Part shown: positions 34,933 through 53,073 of the stretch, piece by piece
How positions within the stretch are numbered: position 1 is the stretch's first letter
Layout of the letters: every line of letters starts with the position of its first letter
Assembly: GCA_026026165.1 (NCBI GenBank)
Contig: JAPEUD010000008.1
Location: 248,001 to 312,000 of the forward strand
DNA: 64,000 nucleotides
Direction: 5' to 3'
Source: Sarea resinae
Lineage: Eukaryota
Notes under the pieces: generated by a model
The model's database searches: none
What the model was told of the DNA's origin: nothing
Seen by the model: only the letters and a program-made list of their open reading frames with translations
Program-made: the position numbers and the translations under genes

Positions 34933-36966
34933 TCACCTCTTCCCACCCTTGGCACTAAACGTCTTCAGCGGATCCGCCTTGCGCCCGCCGCCTCTCTTCC
35001 CCTTGGCCCGGTTCGCCATCCGCGCCCGGCGAATCCGATTCCCCGTGTCCTTTCTCAGCCCCACAAACGGGGCCGCCTTGTCGGGGCCACCTCCAAACGA
35101 CGACGAGGCATTGGCCGCACCACCCGTCGGAAGCAGGTACTCGGGCACGTGCCGGAGATGGGCCTGGACGCGCGCGGGCCGCAGCAGGTCGGCATCGTGG
35201 CGCAGCTCGCGCAGCTGGTCCGGGTTCTCCTCAAAGTGGCGGCGCAGCTTGTCCGAGGCGAGGAGCTCGTTGCGGAGCTCGCGCGAGCGGGCCTCGCGCA
35301 CCGCCACGCGCGTCACGGCCCGCAGCGCGTCCGTCATCCGGTACCGGAACGGCTCGAGCTGCTTCTTGTCAAAGTGGTAGGGCTGCACGGCCTTGCCGCG
35401 CTTGCGCTGGTGTTTCTCGATCTTGGCCAGCACGGCCTCGTCCGTGGCCGTCGACGGGATCGAGGTCGGCGGGTGTTTGTGGTGCAGGTGCGCCGGGACC
35501 ACAAACGAGAGCGCCATGCCCGTTTTGCCCGCCCGCGCCGTGCGGCCGATGCGATGCGTGTACGAGCGCGACGACGTCGGCAGATCAAAATTCAGCACGC
35601 AGGCGACGTTGCGGAAGTCGATGCCGCGCGACACGCCGTATTCTTTGTTGTTTTTGCCCGGTTTGGCTTGCTTGCGTTTTTTCCGCGACGGCTCCTCCGA
35701 CGCTTGCTTCTTAGGTGTGTCTACTGCCTCGATATCCTTGCCTTTGTCCTCGGCTGCTTCACTCACAGTAGGAACGTCCTCGTCATCTTCTTCTCCGAGG
35801 ACTTCGTGTTCGTCCGTGGCGATGATAATGTCGTAGACGTTCTTGTTGAACTCCTCGACCACGTGGATCCGAGAGTTGACCGGCAATTCCGAGTTCAAAA
35901 CGCAGCTTCGGATCCCGAATTGCTCGAGGAACAGCTTCAGGCGGTAGCATCGATCGATATCTCCAACAAATATAATGCATTTGCCTTTGACCAGCTTGAG
36001 CTTGAAGATCACGTAAGCGAGTAGGAATTTCTCATCCTCAGCACATCTGCAAACCCACGTCAGCTTTGATAGATCTGGTATAATCACCTCTCGCAACGCC
36101 CACTTACTTGACCATAAATTGGCTGACCCCTTCACCCTCCTCCTCCCCTTCCTCTAGCCTTAGTATGACAGGGTTCTTGCAGAATAGGCCTTTCAGAGTG
36201 TCGATTTCGGTCGTCAATGTTGCACTCATGAGGAAAGATTGAGTGCTCTTCGGGAGCGACCGAGATATGGCCTGCAGATCCTCATCATAGCCGTACGACA
36301 GAACAAGATCTGCCTCATCGATAACGAGATGTGCGAGTTGTTCAAGAGACAGCGCTGACGTGCTCAGGTTGAGAGCGACACGGGCCGGCGTAGCCACGAC
36401 AACGTCTGGGAGATCGGCCAGTATAGATCGTTGAACGGCGTCGGAAACCTTTTGTGTCAGGTTCACCGCTCGTATATCTTTGGTGCAGAACGCCCCAAGA
36501 GCAGCAAACACTTTGGAGACCTGATCCGCAAGTTCTCTGGTAGGGACGAGAATGAGAGCGGATGTGCATCGGACAGGTGATGGAGCCTGAATCTCTCTCT
36601 TAGCAAATTTGGCTTTCTATCCGTCTGTTGCGCACATACCGTCTTCCTCTTCAAGATAGACTGGAGGATAGGCAGAACATAGGCGGCGGTCTTTCCAGAT
36701 CCGGTCTTGGCACGAGCTGTAGACTGGTGAGCCTAGTACTTTGATAACCCAAGAAAAGAGTTTTGTCTACCAAGAATGTCTTTTCCCTCAAGGGCAAGGG
36801 GAATCGCTTTTGCCTGGACGGGGGTGGGTTTTGAGAACTTTTCCTTGACCAGACCTTGGAGAATGCGCGGATCGAGTCCAAGGCGGTCAAAAGACACCTC
36901 TTCGCTCGAATCCTTTGCTTCAGTCACTTCTTTGGGAACATCGTTTTGGTCGAGCTTGCGCTTCAT
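34933..36966 (-). CDS. DBP9: DEAD-box ATP-dependent RNA helicase Dbp9 (DDX56), multi-exon
   Basis: [88 protein letters not shown] and HFEENP. Confidence 0.97.
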
Positions 36967-37409
36967 CGTGTATGCGTCTGATCCACAGATGCTGGACGCC
37001 GAAAAGGGTTGAAATGGTAGTGAAAGTGGGTTGATCAGGTTCGGCTGGTTGGTCGCACGAAAAGTTTGGAGATAATTATCGTGAAAACAGAAATACAGAG
37101 CTACCTAGTACTTTCGACTTCGGCAAATTCCATACTGGTACGGGGCCGGAGGCCGAGGCCGAGCCAACATATACATACATAAGGTACCTTACCTATATGA
37201 ATGAAGCGGAGTTGGGCTATCCCTCCAAACACAACAGACCCCAATTGCTGGACTACACCAATCCCAGCTCAACCAATCTTCCAAAACTGGTATAAAAAGG
37301 TCTCTGGTATCCGCCATGTCCCAAGACTTGTCCCCCAGAAGATTGTCGTCCTGATAGCTGGGAGCCATCCCTTGTTCATGACCCTATCCCAGCGCAATGC
37401 TGAAACGGC

Positions 37410-38934
37410 TCAATAGTGGCTATCGCGCCAATACATCTCGAGCTTGGGCATCGACTGTCGGCAAACCTTGCCCACATTCATGACTTTGACGTCGTGCTCC
37501 ACAGTGTAGACCTTGTCAAAATTCACCCTGGATGCGTGATCGAGCCCGCCCGAAGAACCACCAGTCCTCTCAACTTTCAAAGGCTCCTTGGTCATCCCGT
37601 TCTCATTTTCTAGCGGCGTAGGCTCTGTGCCATCCATGTATATGATGGCATGTGTCTCAGGCCTCAACCCAGGTTTCAATGTCCCCCTTCCGCCGTATGT
37701 GGAAATAGGGCTATGCAGAAATTAGCCATCTCCCGGGCCCTTACCTCGCACACTTACATGCACCAACAACAACCCTTTTTCTGACTGACGACCACCATCC
37801 GCCGAGTCGAAGAATATATTGGTTCTCCATATCTCCCGATGGAAATCTCCGTTTTGCTATAGTCTGTAGCATTCGATCCTGCGTTCGATCCTGCGTTCTC
37901 ATGAAAAAGCATCTTGAAAACCTGGCCTCGATTTGTTAGCAGCGAAGATGCTCTTGTGGATGGCTTTGACTGACTCGACCAACAGAAAACCATTTACTCG
38001 CGTCTGATCGTACTTTGTACTCTGTCATGAATCAGTTCCTGGTCTCAAATTTCAATCTGGTACGGATTCACCGCTACTTAAAGGCCCTTCTTTTCCTCGA
38101 GTTCGAGCTCCAGAGATGTGAGGAGCGAACTGAAGGCCTTAATCAAAGTTAGCCGACCAAGGAGACAAACTTGGACTATCTGATCCTTTGGGGAAATTTC
38201 CTTACGACTGTCCATCGCCATTGGCGTGTTGCCTTGAGACGGTAATGGCTGGCTGATCAGATTGTTAGTCGGGGCCAGTCCTGGGTTAGGCCTCGATTGC
38301 GAAGGGCTCGGAGTGCTCAGTGCATTGACTTGGGGTTGCCCCATTTGAGAGTACGACTGGCTGTTCAAATTGGAAGCGGGAGGCCGTCTCGGTTCCAGCC
38401 ACCTTTGTGACTGATGGAGGGTGTCTGGAGCACGGCCCAGTGGCCTTGGATGATTGTATGAGGAGTACTGGGGTGGCAATGACTGTCCGCTCAAAGTGTA
38501 GTTTGGACGCTGCGAGGGAGGAAATTCTGCCTGTGAGTTGTGCACCAGGTATGATGGCCTGCCTTGGGCTTGCAATGACGGGCTGTTCAGTCTGGACATC
38601 GTCAGCTGTCCAGCGCTGCTTCTTGGCTGGGACAAATCCCATGGTCTCTCAGATGGCTGAAGCGAAATCAAAGAGCTGTGAGAGAGTTAGTGCGTCTTCT
38701 CCTTTCCAAGAAGATTGCTCTCGACCTCTGAGTTAAGGGGGCGGGTGGAATAGGCTGGATAAATCCTCTGCCGTTTTGAGTAGACCAAGCGGGCTGTCTA
38801 CCTAGACAATTCAGTTTAGATCAGTGCTTGATTGACATGCTTACGGACGACATATATCACATACCTCGAGCATCACCATCCTCATAGTAATCAACATTCG
38901 CTGCTTGACGCGGCGTTCTGTTGAGGTCGCCCAT
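37410..38934 (-). CDS. DUF6590-like protein (low-complexity N-terminus, C-terminal PemK/MazF-like domain), 7 exons
   Basis: Splices without stops from ATG 38934 (MGDLNRTPRQ...) to EYKVRSDASKWFSVGR-VFKMLFHENAG...YSSTRRMVVVSQKKGCCWC-IPISTYGGRGTLKPGLRPETHAIIY...LDHASRVNFDKVYTVEHDVKVMNVGKV. Confidence 0.8.
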
Positions 38935-40355
38935 TATGCTCCCCTTCTGCGGACTCCTGATGCTCTGATACGGAGAATGACGGTGCCATTCTGGCCACTC
39001 AAATAGAGATAGAGCAATCGATTCTGCGGCTCTGCGTCGACTTATGGCTTGTTATGAGTATCCCAAGATGGTGTGCGGGTTATCCGGCGGTGTGCGGGTT
39101 GTCTTCGCCATGTTCGTGCACCGAGGTTCGTCTTGTGCTGGCCATAGGTAAAGCGAAATCCACGTTGCACGCACACGAACCACCACGCGGATGATGGATG
39201 CCAGGAAAGGTGTCGATGAAGATGCATGCCCTGGCTATCACGTTTGCCGTGTATGTAGACGGGACGACCCCGGCGTATCCTTCAGTATCCCTCCCTCTCA
39301 TCCGCGTTCCCTCCCTCCCATCCCGGTCGATGACCCGCCGCGGCTTTGAAACCGAAAAGCGGCATGACGACCTCCACTGCTAGCACTGCTCGCAGTGCAT
39401 GGCGAGAAGGTCTGGGGTGAGATGGTTAGATCGATGCCCCCTCTCTCCCGCTCTCCATCTGCTGCCGCATTGGCTATCATCACGACGATCATGGTACAGA
39501 AGTATGCAATTGACACCTTGTCTCTCTTGCCTACTTTGCCTGCCTACCTTACCTACCCCTTCCAGCCTATCAAAGGCTTTCCGGCTTCCAATGACGGGCA
39601 GCTCGACGTATGATGAGGACGTCTTTAACGAGACCTCACCACCCCCCCTTCACCCCCTTTTGTTGCCGTCATAAAGGTCTGCCGTCCTCACCAATCGTAA
39701 GAGGGCCCATGATTTGGGCTTGATGTGCGACGTCTAACATCATCTACCTGTATCCTATGTATGCTTGTTGGGCACACTCAAGCGTTCCGTTCCTCCGGCA
39801 TTTGCCAGACCCGGAAAGACTCCTGATTCCCGGTGTTCCTCAAAGGATCAAGTGCAAGCAAAAGCAGTTCCTCACCTGTGACTGAACAGCAGGAGCTCGA
39901 CGCACTCGAACGAGAGTACCTCGCTCATTAGGAAGAAAGGCGTATACTCCATGCTCTCGAGTCGAAGGTCGGCTGACGACATACAGCCCGCAGCTGCTTT
40001 GGTGATGCATGCTTGATTGCGTGCCACAACCTTGACAAGATCTTGAGCCTCTAAAGCCTTTATGCAAAGTATCTTCAGCATTCAATGCAGCAAGGGCACT
40101 TATACTGATCTTGTTACATCGTGCCTCTACTCCCGTAGTAGAGGAGTCTTCTAGTCTTTCTTCCACCCGCCATGACACATTCCCTGCGGTGACTGATTTT
40201 CTTGATGCCCAATCGCATCATCCTGGCTGTCACCCTAGGCCAGATGATCGAGCAGAGCTTGGCTATACCGATCATCGCACGGAAGCGCAATCGTATACAG
40301 CGGCTCTGCCGTGTTACTCCGCAAGGAGGGATAGGGTTGTCTCCCACACATTCTC

Positions 40356-41471
40356 ATGGACCTACCGCTGGGGAGCGACGCCCCAAAAAACATTAGGCTC
40401 GAAAAGTTTGAGATGCTAAGGGATCGCCTAAGGGGTAGGCGCATGGATGCGATAGGAACACGTCTGAAGGCCCATGAGATGCGGAATGCCCTTCGACGGA
40501 AGAGGGAAATTGCCAGCGATGCTGACGCAAAACTCATGAAGGCCCTCAATTCTCATTTTGCCACAAAGCTTCCCGACGATAGTTCTGCACTTTACACTCT
40601 GTTTGAGGACTGTCGCCAGGCCCGAGAAAGCTACAACCCCCTTGAAATCGAATACAATCAGCTTGAAGACAGACTAGATTTAGAAGAGTATGACGTCGTG
40701 CAGGAAGAGAATCGCTTTTACGATAAATACGGCGGCATATATAGCAATGGCTCTTCCAATTTTGCGGACCACGAGGATTATGGTGGCTCTATTGTGTCAG
40801 AAAGCACTGCCAGCACAGAGCCAGCGCTGGATTACCCTCCTATACTTATCCAGTACCTTTCACGACTAGGCGATGCAGATATGATTAAAGAACGTCTTGA
40901 TGATTTACTTCACGAACAGGCAGAATGCCTGGAGGTAGAGAGTGTTCGAAGACGCTTCGGTGCCTCACCCTCTTCAGCCAACAAGCAGTTCCTTCAAGAA
41001 TTCAATGAAATGCACACGAAGGTGCTAGCTGAAATGGAAGCTGTGAGGAGTGACGTTCGCCAATTAGAACAGGAGGCTCTGAAACAGGGCGTCCTTACTG
41101 TGACGGAGCATTTTCATGATGAATCAGACTCTGAGCAGCTTACGCTTGAGAGCACAGCTTCTGGGACGCGGATGGATCCTCTGTTGCTTGCCGAAGACGA
41201 GAAAGGGGTCTTTGACACGCTCATCGAGCATGATACGAATGATCCGATCAGTACGCGAAAGCGGATCAATCTCTGGTTATTGCATGTGATGCGTTCCTCA
41301 CAGCTCGAGATCGACCGGTATCGGGCTAATAAGCACCTGGGGGACACTTCTCTGGACGATGAGACTTGGACACGTATGGTACTGGAGACCTGGTCAGAGG
41401 ATGACGATGCCATGGCATCCGTGTCCTCCATTAGCTCTTCAGGGGGCCCTACCTCGACTCATTCTAGCTGA
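40356..41471 (+). CDS. Hypothetical acidic coiled-coil protein; 5' end uncertain
   Basis: 371-aa ORF with heptad-like segments (LEIEYNQLEDRLDLEEY; YLSRLGDADMIKERLDDL) and RINLWLLH. The upstream ORF 40111-40419, in another frame, may be a frameshifted or spliced N-terminus. Confidence 0.7.
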   Translation: MDLPLGSDAPKNIRLEKFEMLRDRLRGRRMDAIGTRLKAHEMRNALRRKREIASDADAKLMKALNSHFATKLPDDSSALYTLFEDCRQARESYNPLEIEYNQLEDRLDLEEYDVVQEENRFYDKYGGIYSNGSSNFADHEDYGGSIVSESTASTEPALDYPPILIQYLSRLGDADMIKERLDDLLHEQAECLEVESVRRRFGASPSSANKQFLQEFNEMHTKVLAEMEAVRSDVRQLEQEALKQGVLTVTEHFHDESDSEQLTLESTASGTRMDPLLLAEDEKGVFDTLIEHDTNDPISTRKRINLWLLHVMRSSQLEIDRYRANKHLGDTSLDDETWTRMVLETWSEDDDAMASVSSISSSGGPTSTHSS

Positions 41472-44704: not shown

Positions 44705-45755
44705 TCATGGTGAGCTGGTGAAGCTTCCTTGCTCTTCGACCCAGCCTAGAAAGGCACGTTCGCTCGGACCTGGAGGAAGATTAGTGGTGACACAGCTCAG
44801 CCCCTGAGGTTACTTACTGGGTGTGGTGATTGATGCAGAGGGATGGATGTGAATTACACGGCTATCAACAGTCTGGACACTCATGGCGCCTTGAGGTGTT
44901 ACAGTCGCATATATCCCATCTACTTCCAACCTTCTCAAACAAACCCGAACTCGATACCAGCCTGCCTCTCTGATCATCAAATCTGGGAAGGTTATATAGC
45001 CAATATCACTATGTTGCTGAATAGGTTCCGGAGAGGTTGCTTCTCCGTTCACCAGAGGTGCTGCGTGATCATCGTGGCTCGAGAGTGGGTGAACAGACTG
45101 GTGGATGTTGCCCACGAGCAGATCTCCTCTGGGAGGGGCTAGTGTTTCGTCGCCATTCTGGTTCGTCAGATACGCCGTCGCCAGCAAGCGGCCAAGCTCA
45201 AGTGGGGTATCTTCACGATCATCTCTGACTGCACGACTCCTTTGACGGAGGGTGATGGGAGGATGAAGTGCAGTATTTGGTCGAGCTTCTGCCGGTGGCT
45301 GAATGACGATGTCTATTTCATACAGGGGTTCGTTGTCTGCTGATATATTGTCTATGCCTCGAGGAGACATGTTGTCCTCGTGTTGGTCTTCCTGGACGGG
45401 GAAAGTGGTGTGCCGAGACTCGAAAATCTCACGTTCTCTGCTGTTTTCTCGCGCGTTCCTTGCTGCTCTTGTCTGCCTACGCAGCCGATCTCGAGCCTCT
45501 TCTGCCGCACTGCTCCTTGCTCTCCACCTCACAGGATCCTGTGCTAAATCAGGTGCGCTGGAGTCCGTGTCTCTTTCGATCGGGTCCCCTCCTATTCTTC
45601 GAAACGAAAGTTCTGCAAGGCGGGCAGAGCGCCTTGTAGAGAGTCCTGAAAATCTGATGAAGCGTCAATGAAGAATCCCTGAGAGGAGTACTTTGAGATT
45701 ACCGGGGGCTCCTGCTTCGACGTAAATGGTTTTGCCGGTCTCGACCAAGAGGCAT
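44705..45755 (-). CDS. Divergent velvet-domain protein, 3 exons
   Basis: Splices as MPLGRDRQNHLRRSRSPR-FSGLSTRRSARL...YEIDIVIQPPAEARPNTALHPPI...LLVG...GYITFPDLMIREAGWYRVRVCL...VDSRVIHIH...TP-SPSERAFLGWVEEQG. This matches the velvet consensus Y.L.V.QQP..AR, PPP, F.FPDLSVR.EG.YRL and S..F..QG. Confidence 0.8.
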
Positions 45756-49640: not shown

Positions 49641-49793
49641 ATGGATAATAACGAGATTGGCTTCATTGCTGGAACGACCGTTAGCATTTCCATTATCATC
49701 GCTGTATCAGTTTGGATTTGCCGCAGAGGTGCACGCCGTTTGGCCGACGCGCAGACCAACGGTCAACCGATCGAACTAGCAAGACGCTGGTAA
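49641..49793 (+). CDS. Putative 50-aa single-pass membrane microprotein or uORF (copy 2), absent from the ORF track
   Basis: MDNNEIGFIAGTTVSISIIIAVSVWICRRGARRLADAQTNGQPIELARRW*: same architecture as copy 1, and both starts read V-F-M-D in frame. Confidence 0.5.
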   Translation: MDNNEIGFIAGTTVSISIIIAVSVWICRRGARRLADAQTNGQPIELARRW

Positions 49794-49848
49794 AGATCTT
49801 CTTCTTCACGAACATTTTCGAAGGGTCAAAAACGGTAGGGGTTTCAGA

Positions 49849-52800
49849 ATGGCGCCTTTACCAGTGGTGCATACGGCTGGATTTGTCCAAGATGCGAACC
49901 AGAAGCCTATGGACGAGTTGCAGCGCGCCCACCTTGCGCATTTTTACTTCAATTTTGCGATGATATCCCTCGCCGTCATTCTCGGCCCTTTTGTTCTTTA
50001 CTACATGTGGTGCTGCCTCAGGAATTGGGGCCGATGGCGCATTCGGAAGATGGTGCCCGCCGAGAACGGGCTTCCGTACTATCGACAATCATATGTCCAG
50101 ACCTGGCGTGGCTGGATACTACAAGATGCCAGAAACGCTGACGGCGGTAATGACAGACCGAAGTCTTGGATAAAACGGTGGATGGATAGGACCACAAGTG
50201 CGGATTTCAGTCGCATTTTCTGGAATCCGGCCGTCTCACAAGAGTTCGGTCTCCGAGAGCCCGCTCGGGTAGGCTCACGATGGCCATCCTGGGCGTGGAT
50301 TCAGAGGAAGAAGGTGACGGATCTGGAGAGGGGCGAGCGAGATTGCCAGAAGGCTGTCTCAATTGGCTCTTCGGCTGGCTCTGTAATCGTTCGTTCCTCG
50401 GGATTTAATGATGGTCGTCTTAATGGAGGCGACGGCAAGACGGGCCATGGCATGATACGCCGTCGTCAGTTCAAAAAGGAAAGCAAAATCCCCGTACCGG
50501 TGCAACGCCATCGCTCGGCTTCCGAAAATGATGTCCCTGAGCCTGTCAAGGAGAAGGTTCAGAATAACCGATCCACAAGCTCGCTCCCGACTAGGCCAAA
50601 GCCTCGCCCATCTTGTTTATCAGTCATGAGGTTGGCTGATAATCCGGACAAAATTGTCACGCCCGAGAAACGGCCTCGGAAAGCCATTCTGTCATCCACT
50701 GCCACTCGTCGCGAGACATCTAGCATTACGGCTTCTTTTCTGTCGGCGAAGGAATCACTCGACAGCTCTAGTACTACGAGTCTTGAGCAGCAAACGCCAA
50801 AGCAGGGTGCATCTTCTGCACAAGACGTCGAAAAGTTGACTCCTACAGACACTATCTCAGTTGAGATGACTTCCTCAGCCAGCCATGCTGAGAAGGAAGT
50901 TCCTATCGAGTCGCTCACGGAGGAGCAAATTATCAACAGGAAAGCTGATATTCTCTTGCAAGCCGTTCTCGATGTCCCAGAGTCTCCAGAGAAGATGAAT
51001 CAGAGTGAACCAGTCTATGGACACTGGTACCTTCCATCCCAAGGTGCAGCAGCACCAGTCATTGCTCCAGCGAACTCCGAAGTATCTTTCGAACAAGTTG
51101 GATCTGAGAGCTCTTCCGGGTCAGGAAACGAGCAACCAGTCGGTACTATTCGTCGGCAGCCGTTCAGAGACGCACCTGTTTCGGAGACCGACTCGGGATT
51201 TGGCAACAGTCTAACTCGCCGTCTCGAGATCTGGGAGTCACCAATGCTCTTGGATCCATTCAACCCTAGTCCGCGTGACTCTAGTGGTATAGCTGGTCGC
51301 TCTGCCAGTCCGGCCATGGGGTGGAGACAATTAAATGAGATTCCTATCCCGAATCAGCTGTCACTGTTTGAAGAGCCGTCCAACGAGCCTGAGATGTCAG
51401 AGAACGCCAGAGGCAAGCAGCCAGTTCGAGGTACTATCGCGGAAGCTTCTCGCATCGATTCTATTCGTGACAGAATCGATGAAGTAGTTGCCAAAAGCCC
51501 CATTAACGCTCCCTGGTTCCGCAATGAGCATCCCACTCCTTTGGACAAGATGCATGGGTATGCGGCACAGAATGAGTGTCTTGGGGTGCCTCAACGCAAG
51601 GAGAGGTGGTTTACGCCCCATCGTGAAGGCCGTACTCCATCAGTGTCTTCAAAGAGCAACTCAGGCCCCGCCTCCCGCGCGGTCTCATCTCCTATCGATG
51701 TCGACTTCCAGTTCCTGCGAGAGTCACCACCTCCGAGTTTCGCTTCCTCATCTTCTCCCTATTATGGCAGGACAGCAGGCATTGGTCTACTAAAGCCATT
51801 CAGTGAGCACGGTTCACCTAATGCGAAAAGTCTCGGCACTAAAGCCCTGACGATCTCAGAGACTGTTTTCCTGAAAGGGCTGAATCGCAAGTTGGATTGG
51901 CTTGAGTACGAGCTATCTCCTGGCTTCCGAGGACCGGATGAGAATCCAGCTGATAGTTATATGGCCAAGGCCGGTCTAACCTTGAACCCCGTCTCACGGG
52001 TCACGGAGGCCACCAAACGTGAATTGACGCGGTCGTCTGCTGGGTCCAAGTCTTCCGAGCACTCCACTCCACCGCCTAACAGGCACATCCGCAAGAAGAT
52101 CCCCACGCCTCGTATCGATTCTTGGCGTATCGCAAGCAATAAAGCCCGGCGCGTGTCGCTGAAGGAAGCATTCCTAGAGCCGATCACACAATTTGGTAGC
52201 GACGAACTCGAGCCTCGTGAAGGCGAGCTCGACACGGCTGCGTGGGTGCTCCGGAGACCGCCCCAGGGCATCCCGACGCCATCTGCACATGAAAGATCTC
52301 CATTTGTCTCGGGTGGTTTCAGACGCGCAGTCCTCGATGACGACAAACCCTCCAAGAAGACTCACCGGCGCACGCGGAAGCTCAAGCACCGAATGGCGCA
52401 AAGCACGGCCAAGGCTCGCACTGCCAGTGCTGAGGCCTTTCGTGCCTTCCGCGGCAAGGGCATCGTCAGGCGTCGCGGCACGCGCGTCAGCATGCGTCAG
52501 TCTCTGCGTACCAGTCGCTCGGCACGATCTTCGCGCTCGCAACTCTCTTTGTCGCACGAGCAGCCGCAGCAGACGGACGGGGCCGCTGATAACGACTCTC
52601 AGAGCTTCGTGGATCCCGAGTTCGAGGTCGAGAGCCGCAGCGCCATCTCCCGCGACATCAATGCTTTGGCCCATCTTCTTCTCGAACGCCCGGCCGCTGA
52701 CCCCGTCATGAACCTTTCTGCGCCTCTTTCTGCTGAGCAGATTTCTTCCAGTGAGCAGGCTTCTGGCATGCAGAACACAACGGCTGCCCAGGAAATCTCC

Positions 52801-53073
52801 TCGTCTAGGGAAAGAGCTATATCTGGCTTCCTCGGTCCATATGCCGTCACTGTCGGCCCCGGGGGGTCTGGACCTCAGCTCGAGGCTCAGCCCGAAGACC
52901 AGAACGACGCCGGGCTAGTATCTGGCTTCTTGGGCCCGTACGCCGTCACTGTCCGACGCGGTGGGAGTGGACCACAGCTCGAAGCGCCTCAGCCCGTGGA
53001 TCTCGATGGGGCCGAGGCTGTGTCTGGCTTCTTGGGCCCGTATAGCGTCACTGTCAGACCGGGCAGGTCGTGA
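49849..53073 (+). CDS. Hypothetical 1074-aa protein with an N-terminal TM helix, a long disordered region and three C-terminal repeats
   Basis: Single ORF; TM FAMISLAVILGPFVLYYMWCC; DLERG motif; ordered-looking blocks LNRKLDWLEYELSPGFRG and DTAAWVLRRPPQG; SGFLGPYAVTV..GGSGPQLE repeats start at 52822, 52921 and 53023. Confidence 0.85.
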   Translation: MAPLPVVHTAGFVQDANQKPMDELQRAHLAHFYFNFAMISLAVILGPFVLYYMWCCLRNWGRWRIRKMVPAENGLPYYRQSYVQTWRGWILQDARNADGGNDRPKSWIKRWMDRTTSADFSRIFWNPAVSQEFGLREPARVGSRWPSWAWIQRKKVTDLERGERDCQKAVSIGSSAGSVIVRSSGFNDGRLNGGDGKTGHGMIRRRQFKKESKIPVPVQRHRSASENDVPEPVKEKVQNNRSTSSLPTRPKPRPSCLSVMRLADNPDKIVTPEKRPRKAILSSTATRRETSSITASFLSAKESLDSSSTTSLEQQTPKQGASSAQDVEKLTPTDTISVEMTSSASHAEKEVPIESLTEEQIINRKADILLQAVLDVPESPEKMNQSEPVYGHWYLPSQGAAAPVIAPANSEVSFEQVGSESSSGSGNEQPVGTIRRQPFRDAPVSETDSGFGNSLTRRLEIWESPMLLDPFNPSPRDSSGIAGRSASPAMGWRQLNEIPIPNQLSLFEEPSNEPEMSENARGKQPVRGTIAEASRIDSIRDRIDEVVAKSPINAPWFRNEHPTPLDKMHGYAAQNECLGVPQRKERWFTPHREGRTPSVSSKSNSGPASRAVSSPIDVDFQFLRESPPPSFASSSSPYYGRTAGIGLLKPFSEHGSPNAKSLGTKALTISETVFLKGLNRKLDWLEYELSPGFRGPDENPADSYMAKAGLTLNPVSRVTEATKRELTRSSAGSKSSEHSTPPPNRHIRKKIPTPRIDSWRIASNKARRVSLKEAFLEPITQFGSDELEPREGELDTAAWVLRRPPQGIPTPSAHERSPFVSGGFRRAVLDDDKPSKKTHRRTRKLKHRMAQSTAKARTASAEAFRAFRGKGIVRRRGTRVSMRQSLRTSRSARSSRSQLSLSHEQPQQTDGAADNDSQSFVDPEFEVESRSAISRDINALAHLLLERPAADPVMNLSAPLSAEQISSSEQASGMQNTTAAQEISSSRERAISGFLGPYAVTVGPGGSGPQLEAQPEDQNDAGLVSGFLGPYAVTVRRGGSGPQLEAPQPVDLDGAEAVSGFLGPYSVTVRPGRS

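Follow-up and report, generated by a model that had tools for sequence, protein, structure and literature searches.

A 64,000-nucleotide stretch of the Sarea resinae genome (GenBank assembly GCA_026026165.1, contig JAPEUD010000008.1, positions 248,001 to 312,000 of the forward strand; referred to here as the window) encodes a member of the protein family DUF6590 (Pfam PF20233) that we place in the MazF/CcdB fold superfamily and, by sequence, outside the PemK toxin family PF02452. Head to head with it lies a gene for an acidic, predicted coiled-coil protein. This recurrent divergent partner gene of DUF6590 is new here and was absent from the original prediction, an earlier reading of the same DNA. 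Our best reading of the pair, whose chances we put slightly short of even, is a dimeric single-stranded RNA (ssRNA) endonuclease regulated by the divergent partner. The basis for it is computational and consists of the gene itself, the splicing of four of its introns, the fold, the residue register, conservation, a predicted dimer, and the gene pairing.

An intact, spliced DUF6590 gene

The gene lies on the minus strand (38934-37410), and its spliced seven-exon model yields a protein of 397 amino acids with a stop codon at the end only. Predicted exons 1 (38865..38934, with the ATG at 38934) and 2 (38726..38801, with a weak GTCGAG donor at its end) fall outside RNA coverage. Exon 3 (38206..38675), partially covered by an RNA contig, encodes a Q/P/S-rich low-complexity region, and exon 4 (38072..38137) encodes the linker into the DUF6590 domain. 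The domain starts in exon 5 (37975..38021; RNA and model) with the motif WFSVGR directly before strand beta1. Exon 6 (37758..37921; Pfam DUF6590 E value of 8e-12) supplies beta1, a long beta1-beta2 loop, beta2 with R283 (codon 37804-37802) and R284, and beta3. Exon 7 (37410..37710; E value of 1e-30) encodes P299-I-S301-T302-Y303 (37709-37695), K310, H318, S358-R359, the dimer strand at residues 363-367, the final helix, and the stop.

The stretch is present in one public RNA run, X1, in a contig of which introns 3 to 6 (68, 50, 53, and 47 nucleotides [nt]) are spliced out where predicted, including those on both sides of exon 4. Intron 3 spans 38205-38138 in this contig, and a candidate intron at 38170-38130 was dropped in its favor. 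Introns 1 and 2 lie beyond the coverage of the run, the intron 2 donor is weak, and an alternative 5' exon/intron structure is also open; the exon count, start codon, and N terminus are therefore provisional. The contig extends about 300 nt beyond the stop (37101-37410), to about 130 nt from the start of a same-strand helicase gene. Over 37101-37710 it differs from the window by eight letters and one deletion, and it therefore comes from another strain.

These results bear out the original prediction of an intact, intron-containing gene of seven exons without internal stops, in which all of the motifs that it quoted are in place. Its Q/P/S-rich N terminus is likewise present: residues 1 to 211 are 41% Q+P+S, compared with a median of 24% for the N termini of 104 homologs. 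The domain that it called DUF6590-like is a member of the family, with exons 7 and 6 scoring 107 and 46 bits, respectively, against a Pfam cutoff of 27 bits and covering model positions 9-151 of 152. No homology was found for the N terminus or the intergenic region among the 80 best contig matches described below, and a search of the 25.5-Mb genome found one copy of the gene, a number to be read as a lower bound.

A large eukaryotic family without an assigned function

A profile built from 17 sequences reached 3,773 clusters (50% identity) at an E value of ≤0.001; we inspected the best 150 of these. The Atlas clusters of DUF6590 are eukaryotic, chiefly Ascomycota. From 169 collected proteins, we retained 192 near-complete DUF6590 domains in 164 proteins, with a median pairwise identity of 34% among domains. 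The domain sits at the C terminus in 115 of 133 single-domain proteins. In most of the genomic copies listed, an intron interrupts the gene at a shared site immediately ahead of the P-I-x-T-Y motif, a sign that the family is an old fungal one. The extra domains among 62 long homologs scanned were a CDC37_M-like bundle (12 proteins), ankyrin repeats (2), and a kinase (1). The first of these defines a subfamily in which a CDC37_M-like (Hsp90-binding) helical bundle lies N-terminal to DUF6590; an example is found at L095:5726-7645, a locus where both tandem copies have the bundle and the partner gene.

The Pfam description gives no function for DUF6590. A literature search returned no relevant paper on DUF6590/PF20233, on a fungal MazF fold, or on a head-to-head pair of this kind; subscription papers, supplements, and the Pfam clan, ECOD, and TED classifications fell outside this search and may already hold a fold assignment. 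Several unnamed Atlas clusters lie near DUF6590, namely, a Basidiomycota cluster (feature score of 0.88), a Planctomycetota-rich bacterial cluster (0.86), and a cluster of 258-amino-acid phage proteins (TM score of 0.58-0.59). They are possible bridges to a bacterial family and serve as leads only, as does the feature score of 0.84 for PemK clusters. Viral relatives were rejected, since only 1 of 51 candidate stretches matched, over 19 residues and without a Pfam hit.

Predicted MazF fold and homodimer

The fold was modeled on P0002, the closest homolog (53% identity over 179 amino acids), as a stand-in for the window protein, using AlphaFold and an alignment of 97 sequences. The core of the domain reaches a predicted local distance difference test score (pLDDT) of >90. 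In a comparison of this model with 48,161 chains, MazF, PemK, Kid, and CcdB fill the first 11 rows (Z scores of 9.1-11.1), led by Staphylococcus aureus PemK (7ewi; Z score of 11.1, root mean square deviation of 2.6 Å, 100 residues aligned, 11% identity). CptN followed at a Z score of 7.9, and then came unrelated Tudor/SH3 domains at ≤6.3. All 30 rows shown by Foldseek for P0002 were toxins of the MazF/PemK type or CptN, a type III toxin (best E value of 1.2e-3, none reaching 0.001). A global profile alignment of DUF6590 and MazF gave no usable link. The original prediction had proposed a PemK/MazF fold, and the modeling agrees with it: the DUF6590 domain almost certainly adopts the MazF/PemK/CcdB fold.

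Two copies of P0002 residues 238-420, folded without the 97-sequence alignment, gave an ipSAE score of 0.75, compared with 0.35 for the best of three controls, with at least 68% of contacts common to runs and a pLDDT of at least 81. Of the solved homodimers, 21 of 30 reach the mark used for dimers, as against 0 of 23 monomers; for eukaryotes the counts are 17 of 29 homodimers and 0 of 30 monomers. The two-fold axis of the predicted dimer lies at P0002 residues 385-389, which correspond to window protein residues 363-367 and, by profile register, to Escherichia coli MazF residues 76-80. Pairing of strand S6 is described for the S. aureus MazF dimer in PMC4041440. Modeling thus indicates that the DUF6590 protein very probably forms a MazF-type homodimer across the strand used by MazF, and the occurrence of two full domains in one chain in 28 of the 164 homologs supports the dimer reading. 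Many of these tandem-domain homologs (P0024, P0025, P0030-P0032, P0035, P0036, P0043, P0050, and P0060) have R-R in one copy and have lost one Arg in the other (e.g., A-R-F or R-Y-F). Such unequal copies are as expected for single-chain pseudo-dimers with unlike halves.

A conserved polar set at the putative active site

In a low-probability alignment whose register comes from profiles and not from coordinates, R283 corresponds to MazF Arg29, R284 to Pro30, S301 to Thr52, T302 to Thr53, and R359 to Val72. This reproduces the collinear register that had been put forward from the window. The Arg and Thr residues so aligned have documented roles in bacterial toxins; Arg29 and Thr52 of E. coli MazF correspond to Arg25 and Thr48 of the B. 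subtilis protein. PMC10893535 reports that Arg25 and Thr48 of Bacillus subtilis MazF, and their counterparts, are required for cleavage. For S. aureus PemK, PMC8887465 describes phosphate bound by Arg25, Thr48, and Thr49 and a T49A variant with lowered activity and no loss of RNA binding.

Across the 192 domains, the residues are conserved as follows: R283 in 164, R284 in 173, T/S302 in 185, Y303 in 180, K310 in 155, H318 in 171, S358 in 174, and R359 in 173. A Ser or Thr occurs at position 301 or 302 in 191 domains, and after sequence weighting the Arg, Thr, Tyr, Lys, His, and Ser-Arg set is kept at 78 to 92%. At the low median identity of the family, this is conservation of the kind expected of an active site. 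The pocket geometry around R283, S301, and T302 is an extrapolation from the same register. Binding of nucleic acid by the DUF6590 protein seems likely, and RNA cleavage is roughly an even bet.

A recurrent divergent partner gene

The partner gene (40356..41471, plus strand) is intronless as predicted and encodes 371 amino acids; an identical 371-amino-acid predicted protein is on record, and the 3' end of the gene is present in the RNA library. Between the two predicted start codons lies a 1,421-nt region (38935..40355) that we presume to be a shared divergent promoter. The protein is acidic (73 D+E versus 44 K+R) and is modeled as two coiled-coil hairpins followed by a helical C-terminal part. 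The gene has a single match in the genome, adjoining the single DUF6590 match. A word-based protein search of 5,270 candidates returned only the protein itself, no common Pfam family was found in 23 members, and a fold search gave generic, unspecific coiled-coil matches only, over residues 5-134. Set against known antitoxins (AbrB or ribbon-helix-helix [RHH] proteins with a disordered tail), these results speak neither for nor against a likeness.

A scan of metagenome contigs gave 137 confirmed DUF6590 matches, the best 80 of which represent 79 loci; when these are merged at 90% identity, 55 groups remain. The window open reading frame (ORF) at 40335-41471, divergent from the DUF6590 gene, matches 16 of the 79 loci directly at an E value of ≤1e-8; the partner profile was iterated on the same loci, and its E values are therefore optimistic. 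A partner counted as paired if it was divergent and no more than 5 kb upstream, and a group entered the count only with 4 kb or more of upstream DNA. By this measure, 12 of 20 nonredundant fungal locus groups have a divergent partner (10 of 18 requiring 5 kb of upstream DNA and 9 of 17 requiring 6 kb). The partner occurs in three further groups with shorter flanks, and the nearest upstream partner is never on the same strand. Because the loci were picked via DUF6590, stand-alone partner genes lie outside this view.

Two diverged copies of the pair occur in each of L095, L106/L113, and L128/L130; between the copies in L095, L106, and L130, identity is 41 to 51% for DUF6590 and 17 to 34% for the partner. 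Over 19 pairs, DUF6590 and partner identities correlate (Mantel r of 0.50, P of 2e-4), although co-inheritance alone could give this. A Rachicladosporium gene model (P0125/P0071) fuses one partner hairpin to two DUF6590 domains. Separately, L110 and L111/L112 have near-identical active-site motifs and different surroundings: the partner lies upstream in L111, whereas L110 lacks it and has a gene of the ICMT family. The difference could reflect presence/absence variation in the pair. Taken as a whole, the pairing suggests that the DUF6590 protein is probably functionally linked to the partner, with which it may be in physical contact. A role of the partner as a direct antidote is rather unlikely.

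Proposed mechanism and alternatives

We propose that the gene encodes a fungal MazF/PemK/CcdB-fold protein that would act as a homodimer behind a disordered N terminus, most likely as a metal-independent ssRNA endoribonuclease with mRNA, tRNA, or viral RNA as its substrate. R283 would take the role of MazF Arg29, T302 (together with S301 in the window copy) would hold the scissile phosphate, and a rebuilt pocket of R284, Y303, K310, H318, and R359 would read the bases. In this proposal RNA binding, cleavage, and toxicity are inferences. The divergent acidic coiled-coil protein, inherited and duplicated with DUF6590, would complete a two-gene module, most likely as a regulator, whether an inhibitor or an activator and scaffold.

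Several observations weigh against this proposal. The profile-profile link between DUF6590 and MazF is weak (probability of 24 to 31%, E values of 5e-4 to 8e-4; reversed control E value of 0.33), and hidden Markov model searches of the PDB returned no MazF hits (zero hits and one irrelevant hit). PemK_toxin (PF02452) has no match to exons 6 and 7 at an E value of ≤1 and matches only 2 of 97 DUF6590 members, weakly (best E value of 0.017). Both fold and dimer were computed on P0002 rather than on the window protein, and the dimer score may pass through likeness to solved MazF dimers. At the active site, the Thr52 column (position 301) is Ser or Thr in only 61 of 192 domains (Asn in 70, Thr in 31, Ser in 30, and His in 20), whereas Thr or Ser occupies it in all 18 proteins of a PemK comparison set, from which 6 of 23 extracted ORFs had been removed beforehand as partial, redundant, or wrong frame. 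Pro30, present in all 18, is replaced by Arg in 173 of the 192 DUF6590 domains. CcdB is not a nuclease; at Z scores of 9.4 to 9.7, it comes within about 1.5 of the best MazF, and the positions of Arg29 and Thr53 are occupied in it by Arg and Ser, respectively. The partner was not seen in 8 of 20 groups, including the helicase-syntenic L085 group, and the partner-DUF6590 fusion is a single gene model that may be an annotation artifact. The candidate Arg and Ser/Thr of the original prediction fare unequally, the Arg being kept in 164 domains and the Thr52 column, Ser301 in the window protein, being variable; with CcdB sharing fold and Arg without nuclease activity, catalysis in DUF6590 is only partly supported by the conservation pattern.

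These points bear on three alternatives. The domain could have kept fold and dimer without the nuclease, as a reused RNA-, ssDNA-, or protein-binding module (compare CcdB for gyrase) serving as an adaptor or sensor in many fungal architectures. The unconserved Thr52 position, a CcdB match about equal to that of MazF, the joining of the domain to CDC37_M-like bundles, ankyrins, and a kinase, and the loss of one of two arginines in some tandem copies all speak for such a module, yet the strongly conserved polar set falls at MazF nucleic-acid groove positions by profile register, and we consider this alternative possible but unlikely. Less probable still, and indeed improbable, is an enzyme with another chemistry or another substrate (nucleotide phosphodiesterase, DNA nickase, or nucleotide-signal processing), whose active site would have arisen anew on the MazF scaffold, around R284, Y303, H318, and R359. 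It would account for the top conserved polar residues (Y303, R359, S358, H318, and R284), several of which are without a conserved equivalent among the 18 PemK sequences, and for two insertions, totaling about 60 residues, that MazF lacks; Kid is also reported, in PMC8887465, to have other catalytic residues on the same fold. Against it, the structural neighbors close in rank to the MazF group include none of a different chemistry, and an Arg is kept at the Arg29 position.

The third alternative concerns the pairing, which might be gene linkage only, through ancient microsynteny or a shared bidirectional promoter, with proteins that do not act on each other. The 8 of 20 loci without a partner fit this view, correlated identities are expected from co-inheritance alone, and the window and L142 pairs also have a helicase flank in common. 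Against it, flanking genes are unshared among the 16 paired loci and the window (except for window-L142, the close L099/L101/L111/L112 group, and one L096-L147 ORF), the pair has been duplicated as a unit in L095, L106, and L130, with the between-copy identities given above, and each gene has a single match in the genome, where the two are neighbors. We regard mere linkage as fairly improbable and continue with the regulated ssRNA endonuclease as the preferred reading.

Comparison with known systems

With the MazF/PemK/Kid endoribonucleases (PF02452; S. aureus PemK 7ewi, B. subtilis MazF 4mdx, and E. coli MazF), the DUF6590 domain shares an SH3-like barrel with a C-terminal helix over about 100 aligned residues, a predicted dimer via the equivalent strand, an Arg matching Arg29, and a hydroxyl residue at Thr52/Thr53. 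Unlike them, it is encoded by a eukaryotic, intron-containing gene, has 5 to 17% identity to them, is about 170 amino acids long with two insertions relative to MazF, has Arg for Pro30 and a variable Thr52 position, and follows a long disordered or fused N terminus. Where their operons carry an AbrB or RHH antitoxin, the neighbor here is a divergent 371-amino-acid coiled-coil gene. An adjacent, co-inherited partner (12 of 20 informative loci plus the window) recalls type II toxin-antitoxin modules, but the pair is not an operon. The type III toxins CptN, AbiQ, and ToxN offer a MazF-related RNase fold with insertions and a similar length; AbiQ and ToxN score lower than CptN (Z scores of 5.1 to 5.4), and no counterpart of their RNA-antitoxin repeat array lies beside the DUF6590 gene. 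CcdB, described in PMC4041440 as a gyrase poison of the MazF fold, is alike in fold, quaternary structure, and the Arg at the Arg29 position. It differs in having Ala-Ser at the Thr52/Thr53 positions and a protein target, whereas DUF6590 keeps a Thr and a larger conserved basic/polar set, and the sequence match between the two is nil (probability of 0.4%).

Fungal poison-antidote and head-to-head nonself-recognition pairs, such as spore killers and het loci, have a linked two-gene architecture, unit duplication, a fast-diverging partner, and shuffling with ankyrin or kinase domains. The DUF6590 pair resembles them in architecture, unit duplication, a diverging partner, and domain shuffling; no sequence or fold link from the pair to these systems was found.

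Genomic context

The DUF6590 gene is flanked by a DEAD-box helicase gene (34933..36968, minus strand; Pfam DEAD and Helicase_C), which we take to be DBP9-like and which serves as a synteny anchor outside the module. DUF6590 adjoins a DEAD-box helicase also in three other nonredundant fungal locus groups (L085-87/89, L090, and L141/142), and in L142 the partner, DUF6590, and helicase genes follow the order of the window, with 52% helicase identity. The original prediction placed the gene at the edge of an accessory island, which our results do not support. The window has no dinucleotide shift like that of repeat-induced point mutation, GC content is about 50 to 52%, as elsewhere in the window, and a search for long repeats across 36.9-50 kb found none. 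None of 26 ORFs passed the Pfam cutoff, and no transposon domain exceeded the threshold. With the helicase neighbor conserved as well, an accessory island or mobile element was rejected. GC content at third codon positions is 0.54 in the DUF6590 gene and 0.52 in the partner gene, below several housekeeping neighbors (0.66 to 0.79) and equal to others (0.47 to 0.58), which is no evidence either way. Farther along, 3 kb past the partner, is a velvet-like ORF (44810-45664, minus strand; Pfam Velvet E value of 5.5e-4, under the cutoff). A 1,097-amino-acid ORF (49780-53073, plus strand) has no Pfam hit, one hydrophobic segment near its N terminus, and three C-terminal GFLGPY-V-V motif repeats.

Implications for fungal biology

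An old, spliced fungal family of 3,773 clusters with a MazF fold, a predicted dimer, and a recurrent partner provides a testable function for a large domain of unknown function. In its boldest form, which we hold to be doubtful, DUF6590 would be a eukaryotic MazF branch, an active RNA-cleaving toxin with a dedicated coiled-coil antidote or trigger, kept by filamentous fungi as a chromosomal module in thousands of shuffled variants for cell death, nonself recognition, or antiviral defense. That DUF6590 and its partner form a toxin-antidote pair is similarly a minority expectation. If RNase activity were true, a nuclease effector would be added to fungal cell-death and defense biology, and the family might yield numerous new sequence-specific RNases of use as tools. 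Should cleavage be absent, the fold assignment and an unnamed partner family would still be new leads, and the recurrent back-to-back pairing suggests that fungi may have a toxin-and-regulator module of their own.
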